Part shown: piece after piece, positions 1,572 through 64,000 of the stretch
Layout: each line of letters begins with the position of its first letter
Position numbering within the stretch: position 1 is the first letter of the stretch
Source: Eledone cirrhosa
Taxonomy: Eukaryota
Length of the DNA: 64,000 nucleotides
Direction of reading: 5' to 3'
Assembly (NCBI GenBank): GCA_964016885.1
Contig: OZ024747.1
Coordinates: forward strand, 44,764,001 to 44,828,000
Notes under the pieces: generated by a model
Seen by the model: only the letters and a program-made list of their open reading frames with translations
Databases searched by the model: none
Told to the model about the DNA's origin: nothing
Translations under genes and position numbers: made by a program

Positions 1572-3994
1572 TTTATAATAATAATAATGAAATTATTGTG
1601 TACAGTGCTCAGTTGCACTACAACTCACTCATCAAAGGTGCATGCATAGTACATAGAATAATATACAAATGTCAGGGAAGTGAATAGTGTATGAGTCATG
1701 ATATACATGTGTGCTTGTGTATGGAGGGGGAATATTAGGTGTAGTGTTGGCGAAGCTCAGGAGGCATGGAGATTTTAAAGGATGCAGTGTCTCGACAGCT
1801 AATAACTGATGCAGGTTATTTGTTCCATGCTTCAGCAACTCTGAGCATGAAAAAATGTTTCCGAAAGTCATGGGAGCTGTGCTGTTTTCTGACTTTGTAG
1901 GTATGCCCACATGTGTTAGACACATGGAATTCAAAAAGGTAGTCAGGGTTGTTGTTGACAAGATGGTTAATAATTTGGTGGGTGTTTACTAAGTCAGTTG
2001 CCAGACGTTGGAGCTTCAATGTATCCATGCCCAGGGAAGCAAGGCATTCAGAGTATGGTAGATGCCTGATGGACGGTATTCGCTTGGTTGCACGTCTCTG
2101 AACAGTTTCCAGGCGGTCAATGTTCTGAGCAAGATAGGGGTTCCAGACTGGTGATGCAAATTCTAAGTGTGGCCATACCATAGCTATATACAGCTTTAAA
2201 TAGATGGCTGAAGAGCGGATGACAAAGGTCTTACTCCCAAAATACATGGTGGTACACTTGTCCACAGCTAGCTTGAGTTGCCAGTCCATGATCCATTGTT
2301 GCATTGTGTCCAGGTCAGATTGCAGGCAAGATCTATAGTGTTCAGGATCTGTCCTTTTTATCTCAAGGTACAGCTTGATGTCATCTGCATATTTCAGTAC
2401 TGTGGCATTCTTTAAGTTGACATCTATGTCATTAATATATGCCACAAACAAAAGGGGGCCAAGAACATATCCCTGTGGTACACCAGATGACATCTCATAT
2501 GGTGAGGAATGAAGGACTTCAACCAGTTAAAAAGATCTTCCTTCACACCCATTGCAGAGAGTTTTGCCATAAGTCTTTTGTGGAGCACAGAATTGAAAGC
2601 TTTAGCAAAGTCAAAGTAAATAACATCCGCCCATGAGCCGCCATCAGTGATCTGGGTGATGTCTTCAAGAAACTTGATAAGTTGATCACAGCAGCTGGAA
2701 TTAGGGATAAATCCAAATTGCGAGGGCCGGATAAGACTGTGAGAGTTCCAGAAGTTTCAAAGTGTTTCTCTGACACAGGATTCCATCAGTTTGGCAATGC
2801 AGCTAGTAAGACTGACTGGACGATAGTTGACAGGTGATGTGCGGTCACCCTTTTTGAATAGAGGAATGACACTGGCAGTTTTCCAATGTTCTGGAGTAGC
2901 ACTGTTGTTCAGACAGAATTGGAAGAAGTGTGATAGCTGGTGCAGAAGGAAGTACCCACCACGTTTGAGAAGCAGGTACGTAATACCATGAAGACCAGGA
3001 GAGGCCTGGTTGCATTTATTTTTAAGGTGACGTTGCAGCATTGCAGGTATAAATTCCATAGTTGTAATAGAATCCGATGTCAGAGGTGGTGGAGATGGTA
3101 CATTTTGTTCTTCAACAGTGAAAATGCCTGCATAGCATTCAGCAATGAGTTCTGCGCATTCCTTGGGTTCGTCAATAACCTGGTTTGTGTGGGGATTGTG
3201 AAGAGGACCAACTGGAGAGTGAGGCTTCTGCTTTGAGTGAACATACTTCCAGAACACCTTTCTGTCAGGGTTGGTTGCTATGCACTGCTCAAATTCAAGC
3301 ACTGCCTTTTTTGTCACCTGCTTGAGATGGTTGGATGATTTATTTCGCTTTTTTTTTTATTGATATCTGATTTATGCAGTTTGTTCTCACGTTCAGCATT
3401 ACGACATTCTTTCCTGGCAAGATGGACTGCTGCAGATGTTTTTTCTGCTTACGTGGCACCGATGCTGCACATGCTGTCCATATTGAGTTCAGGATGTTCA
3501 GGAGTACAGTGTTGATATCTCCAGAGTCGTAGAACTCAAGCCAGTTTGGACGTTGCAGCTCAGTGCAGTAACAGTTCCAGTCTGCTTTATTCCAGTCAAA
3601 ATGAGCAGTCTGGAGATGGTTGTGGTTTTTGTTTCTGACCATGAGGGTCAGATTGGCAATGATCATAGCATGATCAGAGTCACCTAAAGGTTCCTCAGTA
3701 GTAACACTAATAACCATTTCAGGAGTAGTGGTGAAAAGTAGATCCAAAGTGTTGTCACCTCTTGTTGGGGAGGTGTCTACTTGGGACTAGTTCGACTCCA
3801 GCACTAGCTCAAGCAAATCATTTGCACTTTGTGGTCAACAAAAAGTTTCCCAGTCAATCTCAGGGTAATTGAAGTCCCCTGCAATAAAAACATAAGTGGC
3901 TGTTTTCCTGGCAGCTGTTCTGAGGATATTACAAAGTTGAGTGCCCTGATGGTAATTTGGGGGACGGTAAATGACTCCAAGTAGCAGTATTGAC
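1572..3994 (-). mobile_element. 5'-truncated, degenerate CR1-clade non-LTR retrotransposon (APE endonuclease C-terminal part + RT), (TTA)n tail
   Basis: Minus-strand ORF fragments carry APE motifs (GDFNYPEIDW, TRGDNTLDLLFT, GDSDH) and RT motifs (KKGDRTSPVNYRPVSLTSC, GVPQGYVLGPLLF, KYADD), followed by the C-terminal LEFASPVWNP..QRRATK. There are multiple frameshifts. An ATT-repeat tail lies at ~1572-1590, and the direct repeat ATGGTCAT at 1564-1571 and 3995-4002 is a candidate TSD. Confidence 0.92.
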
Positions 3995-7900: not shown

Positions 7901-8340
7901 TCACTGCTCTGCCACTTCATGTGACATAAGGTTGTGTGGTATGTGGTGTTTGCAGTGGAGTGTATGTATGAGTATGTCAGGCAGTGTAATGAGACTTTCA
8001 GAGAAAGCCTTCTTTGATCTGTCAACGGATATTATCTCTTTTCGACCATTGACAGCCACTGTAAAGTGTTTTCGTGTGTGCGAAAGCACACGAAAAGGTC
8101 CTTTATAGGGTGACGTAAGCGGTCCCTTGACGGAATCATTCCGTATAAAAATGTGTGCCCAACGTAGAGATGTCCGATGGGACAGCAGAAGAAATAGACT
8201 GGTCACAAGGGTTCATTGGTGAAAGATCCGAGAAATTCGAACGAATCCTGGTGACATATGATGCTGGGTCAAGATGCGATGAATCCACCGGTGCTAACAT
8301 TTGTCCAGGAAGAGTCAATGGGGTATCATACTGACATACA
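7901..8340 (-). mobile_element. Gypsy/Ty3 integrase C-terminal fragment (GPY/F motif), frameshifted
   Basis: Y..PLTLPGQML ... HIFIRNDSVKGPLTSPYKGPFRVL...FTVAVNGRKEIISVDRSKKAF is the typical Gypsy integrase GPY/F region. Confidence 0.85.
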
Positions 8341-8467
8341 ATGTGTCTTGGGTAATTTAAACTTGGCAGAATATATCTCTTCCCTAGTTTGAACACAGCC
8401 AATTTTTCCAGAGTAGGAGAGGGAGTGATAGAGAAGAAGTAAGAAAGAGATATAAAGGAAGAATCAA

Positions 8468-8608
8468 CTTTAGTACCAGATTAAGTCTTTTTTTTATTGA
8501 CCTCAAAATGCTGAAAGGTAAATTTGACATCAGTGGGATTTGAACTCAGAACATAGAGAGCTAGAACAGCAATCTATCTGACATTTTAATGACTTTGACA
8601 ATTCACCA
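8468..8608 (-). mobile_element. Decayed Nin/Deu-domain tRNA SINE
   Basis: Reverse complement of the B box (gggatttgaactcaga) and of the core (tttattgacc...tgaaaggtaaatttgac). Confidence 0.65.
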
Positions 8609-10799: not shown

Positions 10800-11160
10800 C
10801 TTGCTTTCTTTTCATGGCTGGATGCCCTTCCTAATTGGGTACTTGGTTTGGCATAAGTAAGACCACCTTACAGAGTGGAGTGGGAGATTTTTGTCCTGGC
10901 ACCAACACTATTACTTTAGAGATAGGACAGGGTCATTTTATCATGGCACCAACACTAATACTTTACAGAGTGGATTTGGAGAATTTTATCATGGCTTGAG
11001 CACTAGCCTCTTAAAAAAATATAGAGCAACATGTATATATATATATATATAAATCATCATCACCATTATCATCGTTTAACGTTCATTTTCCATAGTAGCA
11101 TGGGCTAGAGGGGTTGTCTCATTAGAGGCAAGTTGGGTCAGGTGACCGTGTCTTGCTCAT
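10800..11160 (-). mobile_element. Decayed RTE 3'UTR-type fragments
   Basis: gctggatgcccttcctaa, internal ...tttacagagtgga... repeats, and a (CAT)n-gtttaacgttc end shared with the RTE at 12301. Confidence 0.6.
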
Positions 11161-12300: not shown

Positions 12301-14160
12301 CATCATCATCATCATCAACGTTTAACGTCCGTGTTCCACGCTTGCATGGGTTTGGACGGGGGTTTTCCCACTTGAGGCAAGAGGTATTGTCTTGCTCGCA
12401 TAGGACTGTCTGGCAGTTTTTCTACAGTTGGTTGCCCTTCCTAACACCAACCACATTTACAGTGTGGGTCTGGGAGGTTTTTACCGTGTTGCCTACACGA
12501 CCACATTACAGCGTGGACTGTGTGTTTTTTTGTCGTGACACCTACACGATCTCATTTGTTTTGGCCTGGATGGTGTGGCACCAACATAACTTTACATAGA
12601 AGGGGGCGGTGTGGATGGGGTGGGGGTGGTGGGACGGGGTGTATTTTGTTAGAGATGCCTACTGACTGTAGTAGGTTTTACTTTGTATTTAGGTAAGGCG
12701 GGTCTTCTCTATTACTGAGTATCGCCAAAGGTCTCGGTCTAGTGACATTGTCTTGGTGAGGTGTAAGTGTGTGAGGTCGGAGTTTATCAGCTCGTCCCAG
12801 GTTTTTCTGGGTCTGCCTATTCCGTGGCTACCGTCTATCTTTATTGCCCTGCACTTTGTTATACAGCTATCGTCCTTCATGCGCATCACGTGACCATACC
12901 AACGTAGCCTTCTCTCTAGTAAACAACATCTGATCCCTCTTATTTCTAATTTTTTCCTTAGTTCATTTATGCTTTGTCGTTCACGTATATTACTATTACA
13001 CATCCAGCGGAGCATGCAAGCTTCGTTTCTCTCTAGTCTGCGTATATCCTCTGCACACAATGCCCAGGTCTCACTGCCATGCAACATTGCTGTTCGTATG
13101 CAGGCATCGTACAGCCTGCCTTTCATTTTTAGGGGGAACCCTTTAGCGGCTAATAGTGGTATAAGCTCTCTGAACTTTTTCCACCCAGTTCTGACTCTAG
13201 CTACTGTACTTTCAGAGCACCCTCCCCCACTGCTGATTTTGTCACCCAGGTAACGGAAGCTGTCCACTATTTCTATAGAACCCTCTGCGCAGTTGAAAGA
13301 GCTAGTATTTTGTGGGCACTTGCTGCTACTTATTGCCCCAGAACACCGGCCACATGTAAATCTATGTTCTTAGTTAGCTTACCTGTGATCCCACTACATC
13401 TTTTATGCACACAAACTTTGCATTTGGGACACAAAATGGAATTTCTACCTATGCCTTTCCTACACTCTGCGCATGGCCACTTCCCGGAGGGGACCGCCAC
13501 CTTATTTTCTTTCTTACAAACTAGAACTTTAGTCTTAGCCAGGTTAATTTTAAGGCCTTTTGATTCTAGGCCGTGCTTCCATGTTTGGAATTTCTTCTCT
13601 AGCTCGGCCATTGATTCAGCTATGAGCGTTAGATCATCTGCGTATAGGAGTTCCCATGGGCAGCCGGTCTTGCACTCCACTGTTATAGCCTGGAGGGCAA
13701 TAATAAATAGTAGGGGGCTAAAAACAGAGCCCTGATGAACACCAACTTTTACACTAAACTCTTCACTATATTCGTTGTTAATTCTAACCTTGCTGACTGT
13801 TTCTTTATACATGGCTTGTATAGCTCTCACAAGCCATTCATCAACCCCTAGTTTTCTAAGAGCCCACCAGATAATGGAACGGGGGACTCTGTCGAAGGGC
13901 TTCTCCAAGTCGACGAAAGCTAAGTATAGGGGTTTACTTTTAGCTAGGTACTTCTCCTGTAGTTGTTGTACAATGAAAAGAGCGTCTGTGGTACTTTTTC
14001 CTGACACAAACCCGAACTGCATTTCATCTAGATCAATTCGCTCTCTGATTAGTTGCGCTATTACTTTTTCCGTGACCTTCATGACCTGGTCGATTAATTT
14101 AATGCCTCTATAGTTACTCCTATCTAGGGCATCTCCTTTACCCTTATAACAGTTAACGAT
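12301..14160 (-). mobile_element. 5'-truncated RTE-clade LINE (RT, Cys-rich insert, C-terminal domain, 3'UTR, (GAT)n tail)
   Basis: ORF 13330-14082 has QFGFVSGKSTTDA, FVDLEKPFD, GVHQGS, LLYADDL and CxxC motifs. ORF 12689-13267 has FRYLG, LHGSETW, RLRWYGHV and GRPRKTW. One frameshift lies near 13360. A (CAT)n tail is at 12301-12316, and (TA)n flanks both sides. Confidence 0.95.
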
Positions 14161-14209
14161 AATATATATATATATATATATATATATACATTATATATAT
14201 ATCATTATT

Positions 14210-14830
14210 GGTGGATTGGCAGTATCGGTAGAGGGTCGGACGCCATGCTTTGCAGCATAGAGTTACGGCTCTTTATGATCTGAGCTCAAATACCGCCGAG
14301 GTTAACTTTGCCTTTCATCCTTATGGGGTTGATAAAATAAAGTACCAGTCACGCACTGGGGTCGATTTAATCGACTTTCCCCTCCCCCCCAAATTACTGT
14401 CTTGTGCCTATATAAGAAACCATTATTATATATATATATCATGTGGATTGGCAGTATCGGTAGAGGGTCGGACGCCATGCTTTCCAGCATAGTTACGTCC
14501 CTTTACGATCTGAGTTCAAATCCCGCCGAGGTTGACTTTGCCTTTCATCCTTACGGGGTCGATAAAATAAAGTACCAGTAATGCACTGGGTAATTGCTGG
14601 CTTTGTGCCTAAAGTAGAAACAATTATTATATAGAGGGTCGTGGATTGGCAGTATCGGTAGAGGCTCGGACGCCATACTTTGACACATAGAGTTATGACC
14701 CTTGCCATTTCTGAGTTCAAATTCCGCCGAGGTTAACTTTGCCTTTCATCCTTACGGGGTCGATAAAATAAAGTACCAGTAATATACTGGCATAATAGCT
14801 GGCCTTGTGCCAAAAGTAGAAACAATTATT
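14210..14830 (+). mobile_element. Three head-to-tail Nin/Deu-domain tRNA SINEs (14210-14429, 14442-14630, 14641-14830)
   Basis: Each starts gtggattggcagtatcggtagag, has a B box (gag(t/c)tcaaat) and the core, and ends agaaac(c/a)attatt. CpGs are retained. Confidence 0.92.
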
Positions 14831-14922
14831 ATATAGAGAAATGACTTCAACAAGACTACAACTGTTTCATTTGTATGATTTCATATGAATGAAACAGTCC
14901 TGTAGAAGTCATTTCTATATAT
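14831..14922. repeat. Imperfect palindrome made of two hammerhead 3' halves
   Basis: Left arm atatagagaaatgacttcaacaagactacaactgtttcatttgtatga and right arm catatgaatgaaacagtcctgtagaagtcatttctatat. The arms match the 3' half of the motif at 56517-56567. Confidence 0.7.
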
Positions 14923-14927
14923 AATAT

Positions 14928-15262: not shown

Positions 15263-15411
15263 AAAGATGCCTATATTCTACTAATGCATTGAATACCTTT
15301 TTAACTGTGCTTACCCCTAACACAACTTGGGAATCTACATTATACACACACACAAATATATGTATTATATATATATATTTATGTTTGTATGTATGTATAG
15401 TGTCTATATAT

Positions 15412-15783: not shown

Positions 15784-17869
15784 TTTTTCATACCCAGCAT
15801 TGCTTCAAGCAAACTACAACACTCTTATATATATATATATATATTCTTTAAGGACAAGTTTGAGTCATTTTACTCTGGAGTTTCTCCAGTGTACTCACAA
15901 TATTATCAAACTGTTGATACTAAGTGAACACACACACACACACAAACACATGTGGGAAATGTTTGTGGTATGGAGACAGGGAAGCTCACAAATCAAAGTA
16001 GTAATAAATGCATGCACATAGTTGGTATAGTAATTAGTAAAATCCTAATGGATGACCAATTCCATTTTGGCTGGTATGCAAGCTAACTGACATTGTACAG
16101 TTCAAATCCAGGGAACTTATATGTCAGTCAATTTGAAGTGGGAGCTCCATTACTGGTTTCACACTTTTCTGGACTGTAATCACATCAATCACAGGTTTTT
16201 ATTTCAAAGTTTCCCTCTTTTAGAAAGATACTGTAACAACAGCTTGGGGTCCATGACTCCCAGTGGATTTTCTTTTTATTCATCTGCAGGCCACCATACC
16301 AGCAAATGAGTTGCAATGATTTGCTAACTTTTTCATAAATGTAAACCAGGGACTCTATCCCATTTGAAAGTCGAAATGTAGAAAAAAAAATGTTTTTAAG
16401 TATATATAAAAAGAACTATTTAAAAGTCTTAAAATTAAAAAAAAAAGTTTTTAAAGGTTTAAAAATATTTTTTTAATTAAAAAAAAAGTTAAAAAATTTT
16501 TTTTTTATGCAAAGGTCAGCACGCAGACAAGCATAAAATCAATTCTACACAAACACACTGTAAATACATATTTACAAAAATCACCCTTCTCACCAAGCAA
16601 GCTTAGTGGGGTTGCTGGTTTAGTTACCAATGGCCTACCCATGTGACAAGTTGTACTGGGTTACATGTTACCAGTAGCACTCAAGGGCAACCATACATAC
16701 ATACACATATGATGGCTGCAACTCAATTTTGAGTAATACCATCGCTTGATACTTAAGCATGAGCATCGTGGACATGGCTTTTTAGTCTTGCCTAGGAATT
16801 GCTTATGACCAGCAATGCCATACACTGCCAAAAATGTGACACATCAAGTGATGCATGTGCTTGAAGCTTTTTTAAGTGAGGAAAAGCTTTGCATGGGACC
16901 AGTCCCAGTCTCTGAACATCGAATACATTTACCCAAAAAGAAGAAGTGGTCTACATCATTGGATGCAAACAAAGTCGCAGGTTTTATATGAGAGTGACCT
17001 TCTCTTAGAGAGATGTCTTAATGAAGACTACAAGTCTCTCATTCGATAAAAAAACAAACAAACTTTCTTGGATAGCTATTGATTCCCTTGAGTTCCTCCA
17101 CCCTTTGACAAGTTTTAATTTTCCTCCCCCAAACAAACTTGGTGGGGTTGCCGGTGTCAACCTGGCTATGCACACACATACATACATACATACATACATA
17201 CACACATACATACATAAATATGCATAAGTATGTGTACATGTTCAGGCATGTTAAACAAACACATTTATCTATTACATAATTTACAACTTCTTACCATTTT
17301 GACACAGTATGTGACAAGGATGGATCTTTGAAATACAGACAGAGTACGTCTGACAGGCATTCACTCAAGTTTCCATCACCCCAAGAGTTGCATTGACATC
17401 AACCTGTGTTATATACACTTTCCCTAGATTCCACCTAGAATCCCATGATTAGTAAGCATAACTTTTAACCACAGAGCCAAGCTTGTGAGCTGAAGGAAAC
17501 CATATAAACTCCAAATTACGAGAAAGTTATGAAAGATATGAAATTATCATACATAGTATGTTCAGCTTAGAAAGACCAAACTATGCAGTTTATTTTGTTT
17601 GTTTTGGCTTTTCTTTTTTTTTTTTTTTGGTTTCTTGAAGTTCATTGATTGATGATGTTCTATATTTTTAGATTAGGTTTTCAAGTACTTGTTTGTCAGA
17701 AAGCATAAATCATTCATATGAATATTTTAGAAACCTCAGCAATAATAAGCTAGGTTTATTGAACTCAGAACATGTTTAAAATTATCCAAACTTAAAACTT
17801 TCCTTTGGATTTGTTTCCTATATAAATTTTTCACCAAGTTTTATTGCAAAGGTCAGCAAAATACAGAAT

Positions 17870-53562: not shown

Positions 53563-53607
53563 CAGTCACTGATGAAATTACAAGTTAGATTGAAACTAGT
53601 CTAGCTG
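53563..53607 (+). ncRNA. Minimal type-I hammerhead ribozyme-like motif
   Basis: cagtca-CTGATGA-aatt..gatt-GAAAC-ta-GTC-tagctg. The core is intact, the stem/loop III is the palindrome ACTAGT, and stem I has one mismatch and one G-U pair. Confidence 0.65.
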
Positions 53608-53889
53608 TTCACTGTATTTTTTGGTTTCATTTTGGTTCATGGAAATATTGTATATAGAGACACGGTACTTACATTTGTCAATACATACAGTGTTGGTTAC
53701 CAATAGATATATTCTGAAGCAGAGTATAGCAATGATGTGAAACAAGCTTAATGCAACAGTATGCTGGGTTACTCAGTCAATGAAGCAAAACAAAAAAAGT
53801 ATCAATTTATTTATTTCATCATTGAATTGCAGAAGTGAAAAGACACAGCCAGTGGGAAAAATACTTGCTTTAAAAAATGATTTTTTTAT

Positions 53890-55370: not shown

Positions 55371-56270
55371 ACAATAAAATACAGCTTGCTTATTCAGGTT
55401 TCCAATTAATATATAATTAGCATTTATTGTCAATCTTGTTTTACTGTATATTTAGTTATTTATTTGCTTATTTATTTTTGTACATAACTCAGATAATCGA
55501 GTCTTCAAGGATTCCATGAAGGAGCCAATGATTAAAAGATTTTTGTGACTCTTGGTCTACATTGTCACTTGGCTTGCTAGAAATAGTAGTCAAAATTTAC
55601 TCAACTCACACTCTACCATCTTAAAATATAAGGTCACATTGAAAACTCAATTTACATGCTTCTCAGATGGTGGGGAACCCTAAATCATATATCAGCTTGA
55701 TCAGTTCTGATCTGGGGTTAAACAACAACAATAGAAGTAACAGTAACAGCAGCTACAACAACAAAAACAACAATCAATGGCTTCAGCAGCAGTAATGGTA
55801 TGAAACACACCTTCAACAACAACAAAAGCAGCAGCAGTAGTAGCAGTAGCTCCTGCACTAGAACTATGACCACATCAAGCAACAACTGATATGTATTTTA
55901 TTGATTCCTCGGGAGCAGATGAAATTCACAGATGGCACAGCCATTGAAATAAAACCTGCTTCTATAATGTACAACAGATGCTACCAATGATGGTTTGCTT
56001 TTAACTAAGCTTAAAATTGTTACTGTTTTTGTTGTTGTTATTATTGTTTCCTTAGACTTTTAAGAGTAAGTAGAAACTCTAACACCACATCTGTTACCTA
56101 CCACAGGTAAAAGAAAACAACTTACAGTATTAATCTTTTGATTTTTATATGTGATGTTAAATAATATATATACATATAAAGTAATGATAATAAATGTGAA
56201 GACTAAAATCCAAAGAGTGCTCGATAAGGATAATATATATATATATAATATATAAGAACCCTAGAGCAAA

Positions 56271-56433
56271 TATTTATTAAAATAACAGATTAAAGTTTAA
56301 GCAAAGAATCATTGCTCTCACTCTTAACGGGATCTTCTGAAACTAAAAATTGATTTTTTAGTTTCAGAAGATCCCGTTAAGGGTGAAAGCAGCGATTCTT
56401 TGCTTAAACTTTAATCTGTAATTTTAATAAATA
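56271..56433. repeat. Near-perfect ~80-bp-arm palindrome, each arm containing a hammerhead-like fold
   Basis: tatttattaaaat..gatcttctgaaactaaaaa-ttga-tttttagtttcagaagatc..attttaataaata. Confidence 0.93.
56360..56410 (+). ncRNA. Type-I hammerhead-like fold with variant core CAGAAGA (mirror copy at 56294-56344, minus strand)
   Basis: Stem I agttt/aaact, CAGAAGA, t-ccc/ggg-t stem II, GAAA, stem III agca/tgct and triplet CUU. The mirror copy has GAGA in place of GAAA. Confidence 0.6.
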
Positions 56434-56516
56434 TATACATATATATATAAGTTATTCTGGGTTGAATCGGAGGTAACCACAGTAAGAAAGGTACTCAATA
56501 CATAGCAGAGTATAAA

Positions 56517-56567
56517 AGCTTCCTGTTGATTTCTCACGAATGAAACAGTTCTAGTCCTGTAGAAGCT
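56517..56567 (+). ncRNA. Type-I hammerhead-like fold with variant core CTGTTGA
   Basis: Stem I agcttc/gaagct (6 bp), t-ttc/gaa-t stem II, GAAA, stem III acag/ctgt and triplet GUA. Confidence 0.65.
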
Positions 56568-56602
56568 CTTCTATATTAATACATATATATATATATATAT
56601 AT

Positions 56603-56977
56603 AGTTTTGCGAGGTTTTTGATATGAAATCGTGTGTCGAAACAAATATTGTTATACTTGGGGAGGGTCATACTTGTGTAATAATATTTAAAGATGGCGTA
56701 GGCATACAATGCAATGGGAGGAAACATAATAGCACCACTGACGATGTTGCAGATGTGCAATGAAAGAATTTTGTTAGACTATATATATGTGTTTGTGTCT
56801 ATATTGTATCTGTATTTTTGACTGTTGATCAGTCAATGGCAACATTGAGGACTGAATAAATTAGATTACCGATATAAAAGACACAGAAGCAAAAACCAAC
56901 CAAACAGTGAGTGTGTTCTGTTATTAATTCTGGCAATATTATTACACAAATATGACCCTCCCCAAGTATAACAATAT
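56603..56977. mobile_element. Inverted-repeat element (TIR family atattgttatacttggggagggtcat...)
   Basis: 56645-56687 is the near-exact reverse complement of 56936-56977. Confidence 0.7.
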
Positions 56978-57134
56978 ATATATATATATATATAATCATC
57001 ATCATTACTATTGTTTTCACATCCACGAATTGTACAGGAGTGTGAGATGATGTTTTATAGCCGGATGCCCTTCCTAATGCCAACCTTCTTAGTCTCCTCT
57101 TATCATATGCAGGGATATAATGTACCTATTCTAA

Positions 57135-57690
57135 AATCTGAGATACATATTATTATTCTTTATGAGGGTCATGCTGCCAATAAAAACACAGGCACCAGTT
57201 GAGTTTTGCTTTCAGTTCATTATTAACCAGGTAATTAGCCAGAAGGCAGTGGATTGGCAGTATCAGTAGAGAGTCGGACGCCATGCTTTGACGCATGGAG
57301 TTACGGCCCTTGCCATTCTGAGTTCAAATCCCGCCGAGGTTAACTTTGCCTTTCATCCTTACGGGGTCGATAAAATAAAGTACCAGTAATGCACTGGGTA
57401 ATTGCTGGCCTTGTGACTAAAGTAGAAACTTTAATTAGCCAGCTAACTAATCTATATCTTGGTTAGTTTAGCAACTAGATGGTTATTTGTAATTTTGAAA
57501 ATTAAATATGACAATTAGATAACCAGCTGGTTAACTAACTAACTAAGGAATGGATTTCTTACTTAACTAATAATGAAACTGAAGTGACCTTAACTGTAGC
57601 ATGTTTTTATTGACAGCATAACTCTCCTAAAGTATAACAATATCTGTATTCAGTGCATGATTTCACATCAGGAATCTTGCTAAACAAATA
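57135..57690. mobile_element. Older long-TIR element of the same family, interrupted by a SINE
   Basis: 57141-57232 is a diverged inverted copy of 57560-57650. The reverse complement of 57620-57690 matches 56603-56670. Confidence 0.65.
57243..57431 (+). mobile_element. Young Nin/Deu-domain tRNA SINE (short variant) with 11-bp TSD
   Basis: Full head and core with CpGs intact. taattagccag occurs at 57232-57242 and 57432-57442. Confidence 0.92.
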
Positions 57691-57781
57691 CAAAAGAAAA
57701 GTGAGTAAATATATATATATACATATATATATATATACACAATATATTAATAAATGGAAACTATATTTATAAAACCATATT

Positions 57782-57847
57782 TATTTTATTATATATATTT
57801 CAAGGGCAACCAAGGCAAATTATGGTGTGCTTTCATCAGATAAAATA
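57782..57847 (-). ncRNA. Type-I hammerhead ribozyme motif (copy 1)
   Basis: Minus strand: tattttat-CTGATGA-aagcacacca..tggttgccctt-GAAA-tatat-ATA-ataaaata. It has a perfect 8-bp stem I, an intact core and a palindromic stem/loop III. Confidence 0.8.
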
Positions 57848-58017
57848 CAGATTTGTTTTATAAATAAATACTGACATACCCGGAAAAAAGACAACCTTAA
57901 CGATTGGAGCTTCCTGGAAGCTCCAACCGTTATCCAGGAAGCTCCAACCGTCAAGAAATTATTGGAGTAAATATACAATATATTAACAAATGGAAACTAT
58001 ATTTATAAAACCATATT

Positions 58018-58083
58018 TATTTCATTATACATATTTCAAGGGCCACCATGGCAAATTATGGTGCGCTTTCATCAGATAAAATA
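58018..58083 (-). ncRNA. Type-I hammerhead ribozyme motif (copy 2)
   Basis: Minus strand: tattttat-CTGATGA-aagcgcaccat/aatttgcc/atggtggccctt-GAAA-tatgt-ATA-atgaaata. Confidence 0.8.
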
Positions 58084-58138
58084 CAATACAATATAGATTA
58101 GTTTTATAAATATTTATTTATAAAACTAATCTGTATTG

Positions 58139-58204
58139 TATTTTATCTGATGAATGCGCACCATAATTTGCCTTGGTGGCCCTTGAAATATGTATAATGA
58201 AATA
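58139..58204 (+). ncRNA. Type-I hammerhead ribozyme motif (copy 3, inverted partner of copy 2)
   Basis: tattttat-CTGATGA(58147-58153)-atgcgcacca..tggtggccctt-GAAA(58185-58188)-tatgt-ATA-atgaaata. Confidence 0.78.
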
Positions 58205-58340
58205 AATATGGTTTTATAAATATTGTTTCCATTTGTTAATATATTCTATATATATATTTGCTCTACGGTTCTTATATATTTGATATATATTTATCCTTAT
58301 CGAGCCATCTTTGGATTTTAGTCTTCAAATTTATTATTAT

Positions 58341-58392
<52 letters not shown>

Positions 58393-58727
58393 CAAAGGTA
58401 AAACTATATACACAATGCTCAAAGAAAAGTAGAGAATTATATATGATAGTATATAACTGGTATGTCTTTGCAGAATTAGCTCAATGTGCTTATATATTAT
58501 ATAGGTTTGAAGAGAAAGACATTTTTAGAGAGAAAGATTAAGAGATGCAGACATAAACACAGAGCAAATATAAACAATTATATCGATGGAAATAATTATC
58601 TTTTATCTTTTAAAACCATGATTGTGGGTGTAAGCTTATTTGTGTTGGTATGTTGCTAAACACTAACCTGTATAAGTGTGATTATATGGATGCTAGTATT
58701 TCTGTGTGGGTATACAACTGTCTCTTT

Positions 58728-59575
58728 ATCATCATCATCGTTTAATGTTTATTTACCAAGCTAGCATGGGTTTGACAGGTTTGCTCCATTAGAAGCAAGT
58801 TGGGTCGGATGACCATGTCTCCTTCATATAGGAGTGTTACTGGCTAGTTTTCTATGGGTGGATGCCCTTCCTAATGACAACAACTTTACAGTGTGTGCTG
58901 GGTGCTTTTTGCCATGTCTCCTACACTACCACTTTACAGTGTGTGCTGGGTACTTTTTGCCATGTCTCCTACACTACCACTTTACAGTGTGTGCTGGGTG
59001 CTTTTTGCCATGTCCCCTACACTACCACTTTACAGTGTGTGCTGGGTGCTTTTTACCATGTCTCCTACACTACCACTTTACAGTGTGTGCTGGGTGCTTT
59101 TTGCCATGTCCCCTACACTACCACTTTACAGTGTGTGCTGGGTGCTTTTTGCCATGTCCCCTACACTACCACTTTACAGTGTGTGCTGGGTGCTTTTTGC
59201 CATGTCCCCTACACTACTACTTTACAGTGTGTGCTGGGTGCTTTTTGCCTTGTCTCCTACACTACCACTTTATAGTGTGTGCTGGGTACTTTTTGCCATG
59301 TCCCCTACACTACTACTTTACAGTGTGTGCTGGGTGCTTTTTGCCTTGTCTCCTACACTACCACTTTATAGTGTGTGCTGGGTACTTTTTGCCATGTCTC
59401 CTACACTGCCACTTTACAGTGTGTGCTGGGTACTTTTTGCCATGTCTCCTACACTACCACTTTACAGTGTGTGCTGGGTACTTTTTGCCATGTCTCCTAC
59501 ACTACCACTTTACAGTGTGTGCTGGGTGCTTTTTGCCATGTCTCCTACACTACCACTTTACAGTGTAGGCTAGAT
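58728..59575 (-). mobile_element. RTE 3'UTR fragment hosting a minisatellite
   Basis: (CAT)n-gtttaatg end, gctagcatgggtttgac and ggatgcccttcctaa, as in the other RTE 3' ends. Confidence 0.8.
58882..59566. repeat. 48-bp minisatellite, ~14 copies (ccactttacagtgtgtgctgggtgctttttgccatgtctcctacacta)
   Basis: Seen directly. The overlapping ORFs show 16-aa periodicity. Confidence 0.98.
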
Positions 59576-60529
59576 GCTTTTGTGGTACCATATATACATT
59601 TGGAAAGAGGTGAATTTTTCAGGCAACTTGTATTTCCATATTTAGCCTTAAAACAGTTGATATCAAAGTAAACATATAGCATTTAAGCTGGTGTATACAG
59701 TTGCATATATTTTGATGTGTGCAGGCATACACTTCTAGATATATAGATCATTAAGGGCATGGATGTACATATGCATGTAGGTGTGTATATGTGTCTGTGT
59801 ATGGGGGCATGTGTGTATATATATATATATGTGTGTGGGTATGAATGTAGGTGTACATCTTTATATGGATATATAGATATGTATCTATATGTATCTATGA
59901 GTATCTAAAGGTACCTATGAGTATATAGGTATATAGATAGCTATATAGGTGTGATTATTAGAATATATACATATATGTATGTGGATATACATAAGTATAT
60001 GTGTGTGTGTATATATATAATTATGCAGGTCCGTCAATGAGCCTGTATGAGTGTATGTATATGTGTGTATGTGAATGTGGATGTGTCCCTCTATATACGT
60101 GGTGCTAATTGCTATTCATTTTAAATTAGTCTACTTTACCCCTCCCCCGCATATAAAAGACGGTTAAATTCCATTAATTATTTCCTTTTGTTAGAAGTAA
60201 AATAAGGTTTGTTTGTTTGATTTTGAAAATATTTTTATTTCCTTTTTATATCTTTAAAGTTAGGAAAATGAGGTTACGAGAGCCACAGAAAAAGCGTTAA
60301 ATTTTATGCACTGGCACTGGTATCTTTTCCAGGAGAAGTCTTGTACTCTCTGTCACTTAACATCACAGAAACTGGGATAAACAACACTGACCTAGTGAGC
60401 CTCTGGGCTCAAGACAGACATTAGACTTAATATATATATAAATTCAGTGAGAATCGCATTTCGGCGGGTAGAAAAAGCGAAACGCAACGCAAATTCCGAG
60501 TCATGCTGGCAAGCGCTCCAAAGTCTCTA

Positions 60530-60926: not shown

Positions 60927-60966
<40 letters not shown>

Positions 60967-61477
60967 TAAATTCAGCGAGAATCGTATTTTGGCGGGTAGA
61001 AAAAGGGAAACGAAATGCAAAATCGTAGTAATGCTGGCAAGTGCTCCAATAGTTAAAAAACTAGAGCTAAACAATATGTTAAAACGCCATATAAACTGAA
61101 AAAGTGGTCAAGAAGGCATTAACCACCTAAGCCAAAAAAACAAATCAAGCTAAACAGGTCAAACAAAATAAATGATAAAGACAGACCTGGACCCAAATGG
61201 AATTGATGGTAAAATCCAAATGCAGGGCTTCTATGACACCTAAATCAATAATACTGTCTGCTTAAAACTATAAGCTTTTGGTAAAATGATCGAACAAGGA
61301 ATATCACGTTATCAACAGGTATTTTGCTCTGCACCAACTTTGTGAATGACGTAGAGCTTTGTAAAAGCACATGTGTAATTCACAAGGGGAAAACCCCTGA
61401 TTTTGGCAAATGAATTCAGTATGTGTGTATCATGCAAAAAATTGCATTGATAGCAGAAATTGAATAAGCACTCAACA

Positions 61478-61687: not shown

Positions 61688-61737
61688 TCTTGTCTGATGA
61701 TCCTGTGATAAGCAGGTGAAACTCCAGACTAACAAGA
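61688..61737 (+). ncRNA. Type-I hammerhead ribozyme-like motif
   Basis: tcttgt-CTGATGA-t-cctg/tgataag/cagg-t-GAAAC-tccaga-CTA-acaaga. Stem I (6 bp) and stem II (4 bp) are perfect, with one mismatch at the 15.2-16.2 pair. Confidence 0.7.
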
Positions 61738-61777
61738 CTCATTATTTAGCTTTAATAAAATGAATATATATATACAT

Positions 61778-61819: not shown

Positions 61820-64000
61820 TTTTCTTTATTAACCACAAGGGTTTACATAAAGTAGACATTAAGGACAGTACAGGACAATACAGGACGGTACAAATGGGCA
61901 TTTCTGCGTGTAAAAAAAACAGAGGTTGAAATAAAATAACAAAGAAAAAAAAAAACAAAAAAAAAAAAACAAAGAAAAATTCCCCAATAGGGGGAGACTT
62001 CCGAGGGACATTTGTGGAGAAAGCCCATTAAAAAACCACAGTGGCCCTGACCACCAGGGCAAGTGCCCTCTCCCAGTTTTCCACCTTTAATTTACAGACA
62101 CATACTCAGAGAAGGCCCATTCATTCGGGCCATACTTGCTTCTCTCACCCATCTTTCAACAAAATGCTGGGAAGAGAGCACTTCCCTCTCTACCCTGATT
62201 TTCCTTTTCAAATGAAATTTGAAAAAGTTAATCAGGGCATCACCGAAGAGGTAAGTGCTCGTCTTCAGCCCTTTCAAACGTGTCCACCATACTATCTCTT
62301 TCGCCATGGCCACCAGACAGATAAAAACTGCCTGCCCTTCCAGGCTAAAGGAAGGGGGCGGGGCAATCCTCACGATGGACTCAGCTGATAGCTGGATCCG
62401 TCCTACACGTGACAGCAGGTGTTCGACATAAACCCACAAGTCAGCAATGCTCGGACACTGGACGAGTGCGTGCAGGACGGTTTCGTCGCCCTGCGCGCAT
62501 CTCGGACATGCCCGGCTGACGGCACTTCCATGCCTGTAGAGTTTATCCCGAACTGGCAAAGCTCCTCGGTAGCACTGCCAGGCCAGGGATTTCTGGAAGT
62601 TGTCCATAGGCCCCGGCCCGAAAGTCCTTCCGAAGAGATTGGCTAGTTGATTTTCGTCGACGCCTAGAGTTTCTCCAAGTACGTCGTCGCTCTTCCCCTC
62701 CACTAATCCCCTATAGAACGCCAAGGTGGAGTTTCCACCGATCACATTGCCCGATTGGTCGAGGGCTGTGAGCGCCTGAAGACATTCCAGTCTCCAAGCG
62801 CTCCCTCTCGGTTTTCGCTTGACCCAGGACTGCAGCTCCGTCAAGGAGACGAGCTGGGGAAAAACGTGTCTTGCAAACGGCGACCACACCTGATCACCGT
62901 CGAGGAAGAGGTGGAGATGTCGTAGCCTGAGCGCGTGTCTGCGCATCATCAGCCACGGCATGCCCAGCCCTCCACGTAGCGGGTGTTGACAGCAGATGGA
63001 CCGCCTGACCATCGGAGCGCGTCCCTTCCACAAGAAGCGAAAGAGCAAACGCTCCAGCGCAGTCAGGCGGGGCTTAGGACAAGGTACGACGGTCAGGCGG
63101 TAGTAGATGACGGATGCGATGTACGCATTCGCCACCTCCGCTCGACCTTTCAGGGATAGCTTCCTCTCGGCCCATTTCTGGGTGAGAGAAGCCACCCTGC
63201 TCGTCACCTCGTCCCAGTTTTTGTCCGTCTGGAGGTCTGGACCGAACCAGACCCCTAGCAATTTAACCGGTCCGTCCGTCCAGCGCCCGACGGCGCTGTT
63301 GGACGGCATGGACCTGCCTCTCCAGGTGCCGAGCTGCAGGCCCACTGACTTTTCCTGGTTGATCATTGCTCCTGTCACCGCTTCGTATTCCCTTAGTGTA
63401 GTGCCGATCGCCTCGATGTGTTTGGCGTTCGACACCACTACGGTGACATCGTCGGCATATGCTGACACGGATCTTCCGCATCCTAGTTCGCGCGGGACCC
63501 CCCTCAACGTCTCCAGTTTGTGCAGTAATGGCTCGAGAGTCAATACGTACAATAGGGTCGAGAGGGGACATCCTTGGCGGACCGAGCGCATGATGTTGAA
63601 CGGTTCCGAAAGGTGACCGTTCACTCTCACTACAGAGCAGATGTCGCTGTGCATGGCAGCGATCCAGCCTCTGAAGACGGGCCCAAAGCCAGCCGCCCTC
63701 AGGACTGCCGTTAGGTAACGATGGTCGACCCTATCGAAGGCTTTCGACTGATCTAAATTGATCAAAGACCCACCCGTGCCAGGTTCCCTAGCTACCCTCT
63801 CTACGATGTATCGCATGAGGTGGAGGTTGTCGTGGATGGATCTGTCGGGAATGGCGCATGTCTGTGCCTCTCCCACCAGACCACCAACGACAAGCGCCAA
63901 CCTCTTTGCTAGCACCTTGGCCAAAATCTTGAACTCTGTGTTTAGCAGAGTTATGGGCCTAAAATTATCTATGTTATCCCCCTTGTTCGGATCCTTTCTC
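61790..64000 (-). mobile_element. Young Tx1/L1-clade non-LTR retrotransposon, 3' part (continues beyond the window)
   Basis: Uninterrupted ORF2, 3'UTR, AATAAA (minus strand, 61830-61825) and a (TTA)n tract at ~61790-61818. It is GC- and CpG-rich relative to its flanks. Confidence 0.93.
62092..64000 (-). CDS. Tx1/L1-type ORF2: reverse transcriptase + C-terminal CCHC zinc finger (5'-partial)
   Basis: The frame is open to the window edge (RKDPNKGDNIDNFRPITLLNTEFKILAKVLAKRL). Motifs include LDQSKAFDRV, SVRQGCPLS, AYADD, LSLKGR, GGLG and CPRC..ETVLHALVQC. Confidence 0.93.
   Translation of the reverse strand, partial: RKDPNKGDNIDNFRPITLLNTEFKILAKVLAKRLALVVGGLVGEAQTCAIPDRSIHDNLHLMRYIVERVAREPGTGGSLINLDQSKAFDRVDHRYLTAVLRAAGFGPVFRGWIAAMHSDICSVVRVNGHLSEPFNIMRSVRQGCPLSTLLYVLTLEPLLHKLETLRGVPRELGCGRSVSAYADDVTVVVSNAKHIEAIGTTLREYEAVTGAMINQEKSVGLQLGTWRGRSMPSNSAVGRWTDGPVKLLGVWFGPDLQTDKNWDEVTSRVASLTQKWAERKLSLKGRAEVANAYIASVIYYRLTVVPCPKPRLTALERLLFRFLWKGRAPMVRRSICCQHPLRGGLGMPWLMMRRHALRLRHLHLFLDGDQVWSPFARHVFPQLVSLTELQSWVKRKPRGSAWRLECLQALTALDQSGNVIGGNSTLAFYRGLVEGKSDDVLGETLGVDENQLANLFGRTFGPGPMDNFQKSLAWQCYRGALPVRDKLYRHGSAVSRACPRCAQGDETVLHALVQCPSIADLWVYVEHLLSRVGRIQLSAESIVRIAPPPSFSLEGQAVFICLVAMAKEIVWWTRLKGLKTSTYLFGDALINFFKFHLKRKIRVEREVLSSQHFVERWVREASMARMNGPSLSMCL

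Follow-up and report, generated by a model that had tools for sequence, protein, structure and literature searches.

How did two diverged inverted copies of a module of about 90 bp come to stand at the two ends of a 2.2-kb nest of inverted repeats, each beside a different hammerhead ribozyme? The question is raised by positions 56181-58343 of a 64,000-nt stretch of Eledone cirrhosa DNA (assembly GCA_964016885.1, contig OZ024747.1, positions 44,764,001 to 44,828,000, forward strand), which is called the window throughout and is numbered from its first letter. The region was found to consist of several short ribozyme-bearing inverted repeats packed between TA microsatellites, in the order left module (minus strand), palindrome A, TA, unit C, TA, element D, TA, a common repeat, element E, TA, unit B, TA, right module (plus strand), TA. 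In both A and B the arms point outward, and each hammerhead runs in the sense of its own arm. On balance, we read at least five units between the TA runs as separate insertions of Hydra-type Penelope-like elements (PLEs), with the hairpin of the module as the tail and the predicted binding site of the reverse transcriptase (RT). The module itself is likely a one-sided PLE tail, that is, the start of the next unit.

The modules and the hammerheads beside them

The preliminary description of this DNA had reported 56181-56273 and 58251-58343 as diverged inverted copies, which was confirmed. BLAST aligned 56164-56284 with 58360-58242 at 87.7% identity over 122 columns including the TA flanks (E 1e-36), and the module core (56181-56272 against 58343-58255) is 89.1% identical over 92 columns, differing by seven substitutions among 86 aligned bases and by a single gap of 3 nt within an internal TA run; none of 1000 shuffles reached the alignment score. 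A covariance model built from both copies found no third copy in the 64-kb window (next best E 0.86), and an exact-pattern search of the prokaryotic genome collection gave 0 matches, which is uninformative for an animal repeat. The modules and palindrome A are as follows.

56181..56269, minus strand: module, left copy; one-sided extension of palindrome A, likely a PLE tail; ends in AT-rich/TA sequence
56216..56267, minus strand: conserved motif of the left module; stem P1 (UGCUC/GAGCA), an inner stem looped by a TA run, a bulge on the 3' side and, after these, AC and pyrimidines
56270..56349, minus strand: palindrome A, left arm (A-); damaged hammerhead with its core from 56339, GAGA for GAAA, cleavage position 56299, and 3' flank
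56355..56434, plus strand: palindrome A, right arm (A+); type I fold 56360-56410, core CAGAAGA, U.U spacer, CUU site
58258..58343, plus strand: module, right copy; AC after P1 changed to CA; ends at (TA)17 58344-58377

Palindrome A is symmetric up to a TA-like junction, and the module extends it on one side only. The left module starts 29 nt past the cleavage position of A-, where the symmetry stops, and the right arm is a tail-less end running into (TA)n at 56440-56449. The two ends thus lie 94 nt (without the module) and 183 nt (with it) from the hammerhead. Read in antisense, the module has a brief open frame that ends at one shared stop in its two copies and is too short to search; this protein reading was set aside because a motif on the sense strand explains the conservation. 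A selenocysteine insertion sequence (SECIS) or twister reading, considered from consensus features and checked through Rfam only, was likewise dropped.

A type I hammerhead descriptor, whose thresholds were chosen after the sequence had been seen, found five folds in the window, four of them within the region.

56365-56405, plus strand: fold passing the type I descriptor
56523-56561, plus strand: fold passing the type I descriptor
58075-58026, minus strand: fold passing the type I descriptor
57839-57790, minus strand: fold passing the type I descriptor

Across 300 dinucleotide shuffles of the region the mean was 0.01 folds; three shuffles held one fold and none held four. The output of Rfam consisted of generic microRNA-hairpin matches below the gathering scores, which were rejected as palindrome artefacts.

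The left and right hammerheads are unrelated in sequence, as had been claimed: with their flanks, A and B align no better than shuffles, 201 of 1000 of which score as high. Nor was any relation beyond shuffles seen in five pairs tested among hammerheads A, B, C and F (152 to 873 of 1000), F being a fourth, decayed core at +56738. The third hammerhead family (C, 56523) and the two elements with terminal inverted repeats (TIRs; D and E) that had been noticed between the modules are also present. Each module was said to follow a palindromic hammerhead; its position just downstream of a hammerhead arm stands, but the adjoining copies fail the descriptor, A- having GAGA for GAAA and the copy beside the right module (B+) having its first stem II pair broken. 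The intact folds sit on the opposite arms. The core of A+ carries one change (CAGAAGA) and that of C reads CUGUUGA, and A, C, F and a copy at 61694 (G) agree with the form ctgaNgaT...Tgaa within one mismatch.

Altogether 11 hammerhead-type ends were found in the window, four of them outside the region (14.8 kb and 14.9 kb as an inverted pair, 15.9 kb and 61.7 kb). Ten of the 11 meet (TA)3+ within 42 nt of the cleavage position, which supports the TA-rich hotspot proposed before; the eleventh, A-, runs into the module. The module lies downstream of two of the 11.

Some of these outlying sequences may be described briefly. The hammerheads at 61689-61765 (plus strand) and 15843-15911 (minus strand) are related to each other (76% over 51 nt), slightly decayed and of Hydra type, and both end in (TA)n. 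At 14827-14926 an inverted pair of C-type hammerhead 3' halves lies tail-less in TA, beside a repeat stack resembling short interspersed elements (SINEs; 14211-14831). A perfect CTGATGA...GAAA core with poor stems at 53569-53610 (plus strand) is possibly a decayed hammerhead.

Likeness to the ends of Hydra-clade elements

To place these units, we compared them with published PLEs. Such elements are described as inserting in partial tandems, next to which lies an inverted copy truncated at its 5' end; a tail on one side is optional (PMC8557442). The Hydra clade, which includes Hydra-1_Obim of Octopus bimaculoides, bears hammerheads and targets (TA)n, a mark carried by 26 of the 27 Hydra families listed (PMC8557442). 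An inverted pseudo-long terminal repeat (pLTR) next to a direct one, an optional one-sided tail and AT-rich targets are on record for Penelope/Poseidon (PMC3846280), and a Poseidon protein starts reverse transcription at two internal sites, the tail being the stretch between both (PMC11167929).

The architecture of the nest, with its inverted arms, tail and TA targeting, is known PLE behaviour, and the pLTR- or PLE-type origin proposed in the preliminary description gains support from the inverted and direct copies and the one-sided extension of palindrome A. Insertion into (TA)n, a trait of the Hydra clade, is seen here, and an inverted 5'-truncated copy facing outward beside a direct copy, a trait of PLEs, is seen in A (56270-56434), in B (57968-58254) and at 14827-14926. 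Further likenesses to the Hydra clade of PMC8557442 are the minimal type I hammerheads near the 3' end, their distances from that end and a GCTC-hairpin-GAGC-AC motif. Hammerhead-to-end distances in the region (85-127 nt without a tail, 183 nt with it) agree with the roughly 100-200 nt of Hydra elements. Among 24 such distances in the Hydra material, 12 families fall at 87-130 (median 102.5), 11 at 152-210 (median 180) and one at 425, so that the 94 and 183 nt of palindrome A match the two length classes of PMC8557442, and the 89-bp extension matches the gap of about 78 nt between them. Counted by eye in File S2 of PMC8557442, the form ctgaNgat...tgaa occurs in 14 of 26 Hydra rows and in 0 of 8 other rows, and U at the cleavage position (H17=U, as in A) in 10 of the 26 Hydra rows. 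No hammerhead of the window matches that of Hydra-1_Obim by eye, and three module motifs had no match in the Hydra sequences of the PMC8557442 supplement.

The hairpin motif was noticed in the window and afterwards sought by eye in published Hydra consensus sequences. The left-module fold has z -2.52, with 4 of 200 shuffles as good. Six new Hydra consensus sequences offer six termini that are informative, three of them 3' tails and the other three complete 5' starts. GCTCT-hairpin-GAGCACT is exact, by eye, in three of them, namely the tails of Hydra-2_Amil and Hydra-2_Ajap and the 5' start of Hydra-1_Ajap; it is altered in two others, the Hydra-1_Crog 5' start (GCCC/GGGC) and the Crog tail (one mismatch). 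The matching termini belong to elements of coral, sea cucumber and sea louse. By chance, a random 90-mer would carry the strict motif with a probability of 3e-5 to 1.7e-4, and a relaxed one with up to 1.3e-3; GAGCACT alone occurs 22 times in the Craig supplement, five of these in the 14-kb Hydra file. The preliminary suggestion that the module is an RT-recognition end is strengthened by this match to Hydra-clade termini, and by analogy we infer that the hairpin would be the recognition site.

Within the window the strict motif occurs twice, in the left module and at 61067-61040, where it opens a piece of another family (H).

60963..61075, minus strand, outside the region: family H piece; begins with the strict motif (61067-61040), (TA)n 78 nt later
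60430..60521, minus strand, outside the region: second copy of family H; 87% identical, cut off within the motif and lying between microsatellites

The piece at 61067 is otherwise unrelated to the module (394 of 1000 shuffles). The two family H copies, 528 bp apart and both ending in (TA)n, are direct and unpaired. A hammerhead upstream of them on the same strand was looked for and not found; on the other strand, just past 61080, there is a possible decayed core. Among 11 distinct sites of a looser descriptor outside the satellite, only the left module and 61067 have (TA)4+ within 110 nt (background 10% per 100 nt). The loose pattern GCTC-N8-38-GAGC is not enriched (9 found against 14.4 expected), and it is the longer motif alone that is informative.

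Neither the tail motif shared across phyla nor the tail of 90 nt appears to have been described before. The Hydra-clade text of PMC8557442 mentions neither the motif nor a tail of 80-90 nt, and no description of the motif was found by searches of the PLE and hammerhead literature, although Repbase, figures or Cervera and de la Pena 2014 could hold it; hammerheads go unmentioned in the main text of a paper on O. vulgaris repeats (PMC13282606). In the PMC8557442 supplement, the 5' start of Naiad_Ptep has an AT-rich run followed by GCTC...GAGCACT, which may be chance or a deeper conservation of the motif.

A broader proposal, which we regard as possible but doubtful, is that Hydra-type PLEs from corals to molluscs share a clade-wide terminal RNA element, GCUC-hairpin-bulge-GAGC-AC, serving as RT docking signal and DNA landing mark. 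Hammerhead cassettes inserted ahead of it would become mobilisable, and ribozymes and tails could recombine freely; if so, this free recombination would build stacks of several families such as 56181-58343. The RT clade of PLEs is sister to telomerase RT. One PLE protein has been studied in vitro (PMC11167929), and a motif common to tails and 5' starts across phyla offers a concrete, mutable candidate for RNA recognition by PLEs. It also helps to recognise PLE pieces lacking an open reading frame (ORF), which are likely annotated as miniature inverted-repeat transposable elements (MITEs), hairpin RNAs or unknown repeats.

Unit B, a proposed course of insertion and rival explanations

The second hammerhead family of the nest ends next to the right module and has the following parts.

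57729..57870, minus strand: B2, terminal direct pLTR-like copy; intact fold 57839-57790, ends in (TA)n 57710-57737
57871..57967, minus strand: B body, 97 bp of non-coding spacer that holds a duplication of 21 bp and a strong hairpin
57968..58110, minus strand: B1, direct pLTR-like copy; intact fold 58075-58026, 236 bp from B2
58112..58254, plus strand: B+, inverted copy; core 58147, stem II damaged, cleavage position 58196, ends in (TA)5 58247-58256

Unit B (57729-58254) is thus a complete array of inverted pLTR, pLTR, 97-bp body and pLTR without the module, and its body has no relation to the module (an equally high score is reached by 1000 of 1000 shuffles). This is the layout of two direct copies and one inverted copy described by Arkhipova in 2013 (PMC3846280), with the 97-bp body in place of the ORF. 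B1 and B2 can also be likened to retrozymes of the non-LTR type, forming a non-coding 236-bp tandem of low GC content with a complete type I hammerhead in each copy (PMC7229834; bioRxiv 2026.07.22.740005); as in retrozymes, at least two consecutive units of 150-450 bp carry a complete hammerhead, the first unit being 5'-truncated. Unlike the retrozymes of PMC7229834, unit B is only a partial dimer with an inverted third copy, known here from DNA alone, and its hammerhead looks minimal, with the short stem III of PLE-type motifs (2 bp beyond A15.1-U16.1). Retrozymes have a canonical hammerhead with contacts between loop 1 and loop 2 and are expressed as circular RNA.

A (TA)5 run separates B+ from the right module, and none separates A- from the left module. 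Both flanks of unit B and the B body start alike, with TA-TTTRCTC, and because of this shared start the sequences suggest that B was primed where the target mimics its own junction. Since B needs no module to be complete and is followed by a body of its own, it more likely went in ahead of a tail already in place than carried the module itself. Short related pieces at 57686-57711 and 58400-58444 (both minus strand; 79% over 24 nt) follow TA with TT-R-CTC-like starts, and the latter folds with a CUC/GAG stem; both are possibly further tail remnants.

Published PLE work suggests how such units might arise. A PLE protein encoded elsewhere would nick (TA)n and prime complementary DNA (cDNA) on a template RNA that reads hammerhead, short flank, TA junction and start of the next unit. 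Reverse transcription starting at the TA junction would give a tail-less end, and starting about 90 nt further on a tailed end; two starts on opposite strands would leave inverted arms facing outward, one of them tailed. This is the form of palindrome A, with its ends 94 and 183 nt from the hammerhead, and unit B has the shape of inverted pLTR, pLTR, body and pLTR without the module. The right module would then be a tail of the A family, most likely a tail-only insertion, and B would have entered the TA run that heads this tail, since the first 11 bases of the module mimic B's own junction. The two family H copies offer a local precedent for tail-only insertions. Judged from these features, an A-family tail with B at its head ranks above a heterologous B tail, and this in turn above a displaced tail of A+.

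The preliminary description had taken the two ends for subfamilies that kept a common module and swapped ribozymes. Unrelated ribozymes do stand beside a common module, but the B unit is complete without it and has its own downstream body. We consider it rather unlikely that A and B are two families truly sharing the module as 3' tail and differing in ribozyme, with B+ and the right module on one RNA. Both modules lie directly downstream of a same-strand hammerhead end and stop at the same base, and the Hydra-1_Crog tail, which differs from its own 5' start while both carry the motif, is a precedent for heterologous tails. Against a shared tail speak the 97-bp body that stands in place of the module as B's tandem neighbour, the (TA)5 between B+ and the module, and the presence of the module after only two of the 11 hammerhead ends; B+ is also nearer to B1 (4/130 differences, with the body following B1) than to B2 (9/130), a small difference to which no significance is attached. 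The single composite element offered earlier as an alternative is disfavoured by the arms of E, which are far older (31/138 differences, against 12/166 for A arms and modules together; Fisher p=2e-4) and hold a later SINE-like insertion of their own. Such an origin in one event, with the right module as the displaced tail of A+ and later elements piled into the TA junction, or with the interior captured between PLE ends, seems improbable to us, even though A arms (5/80) and modules (7/86) are equally diverged, TA stands both at the end of A+ and at the start of the right module, the arms of B (4/130) and D (1/43) are as young or younger, and pLTR-bounded capture of host DNA is documented (PMC3846280). 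No target duplication is readable in the TA flanks, and it is not rare (about 7%) for two independent insertions to fall within 2.2 kb of each other in 64 kb, the H pair clustering likewise. Finally, the modules might be the TIRs of a 2.2-kb non-autonomous DNA transposon with the hammerheads as incidental passengers. Equal outer endpoints, TA flanks and 89% identity are in its favour, as is the MITE-like look of D and E. The modules resemble the TIRs of a transposon or MITE in geometry only. The module-bounded unit is flanked by TA microsatellites and has one copy in 64 kb. The inner module boundaries coincide with the ends of the hammerhead palindromes, matches to the motif are found at PLE termini of three phyla, the motif-bearing relative H occurs as direct, unpaired copies and the region holds no transposase ORF, all of which makes this origin highly improbable.

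The reading of the units as separate PLE insertions also has observations weighing against it. That both of the two modules follow a same-strand hammerhead end fits a shared tail equally well. Rfam gave no hammerhead at E<=1 in the window or E<=10 in the region, and the four folds that pass the descriptor all differ from the minimum-energy structure (z 0.07 to -0.88). The right module lacks AC after P1, and its fold has z -0.64, with 47 of 200 shuffles as good. P1 is invariant in three copies of the window, which show no covariation; its sole two-sided change is in one published consensus read by eye (Hydra-1_Crog), and at the 5' start of Hydra-1_Obim only the motif's first half is present. 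The likeness by the U.U form of the hammerhead comes from the 26 Hydra and 8 other rows of File S2. The module tail measures 89 nt against 30-40 in Penelope/Poseidon (PMC3846280, PMC11167929), where the tail lies in the ORF start, whereas the module is non-coding in the sense frame of A; its putative RT-binding role is borrowed by analogy from a Poseidon-clade protein. No PLE ORF of at least 80 aa was found in 56181-58343, where a PLE RT with a C-terminal GIY-YIG lacking CCHH and the RWK, DKT and CxCX5C motifs were sought, and because of this membership of the Hydra clade cannot be shown. The locus likely consists of truncated or non-autonomous pieces working like a Hydra-clade PLE, with the source element outside the window.

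Interior elements and the rest of the window

Between palindrome A and unit B lie the following elements.

56450..56582, plus strand: unit C, about 130 bp between two TA runs; 5' hairpin and hammerhead fold 56517-56567
56604..56977, no strand assigned: element D; 43-bp inverted arms 56645-56687/56935-56977 with 1 difference, one-sided 41-nt hairpin 56604-56644
56991..57146, no strand assigned: common dispersed repeat fragment; adjoins (TA)n at this site and at several others in the window
57147..57685, no strand assigned: element E, an old inverted-repeat element; arms 57147-57225/57568-57643, one-sided hairpin 57644-57685
57243..57431, plus strand: dispersed 190-bp repeat inside E; 11-bp target duplication 57232-57242 / 57432-57442

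Unit C has relatives in the window at 14827-14926 and 15272-15315. The sequence at 15272-15345 (minus strand), a relative of its 5' half, starts just past a TA run with a similar hairpin, which suggests that C could be a full-length mini-element of about 130 bp. Element D holds the decayed hammerhead core F (+56738-56775), and its ends are related to those of E (53/72). The 190-bp repeat in E we take to be SINE-like. On the D+/E- strand the one-sided hairpin keeps 8 of 8 pairs with four one-sided changes, which argues for a reading opposite to a tail; the decayed hammerhead halves in E point outward, contrary to the polarity of D and E based on the hairpin.

Elsewhere, several remnants of non-LTR retrotransposons were seen. 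A broken non-LTR RT with a PHD-like finger lies at 12689-14190 (minus strand), and its relatives at 52-76% carry PF00078 and PF00628. For the RT at 13333-14154 the best match, at 76%, bears the label of a bacterial MAG protein, and named animal matches reach 64% (Hydractinia). At 1632-3786 and 7901-8480 (both minus strand) there are frameshifted non-LTR RT remnants and fragments resembling the integrase end of LTR retrotransposons, as labelled by eye. A 635-aa frame at 62092-64000 (minus strand) is open at the window end; it is GC-rich, looks like a non-LTR RT by eye and is possibly young. The largest repeat is a 25.6-kb satellite at 17887-43466 with a 40-bp unit in about 639 copies (93% matches) and a strong strand skew. 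A 48-bp minisatellite at 58883-59581 has 14.6 copies (95% matches), and related arrays of 47-49 bp occur at 10868 and 60668.

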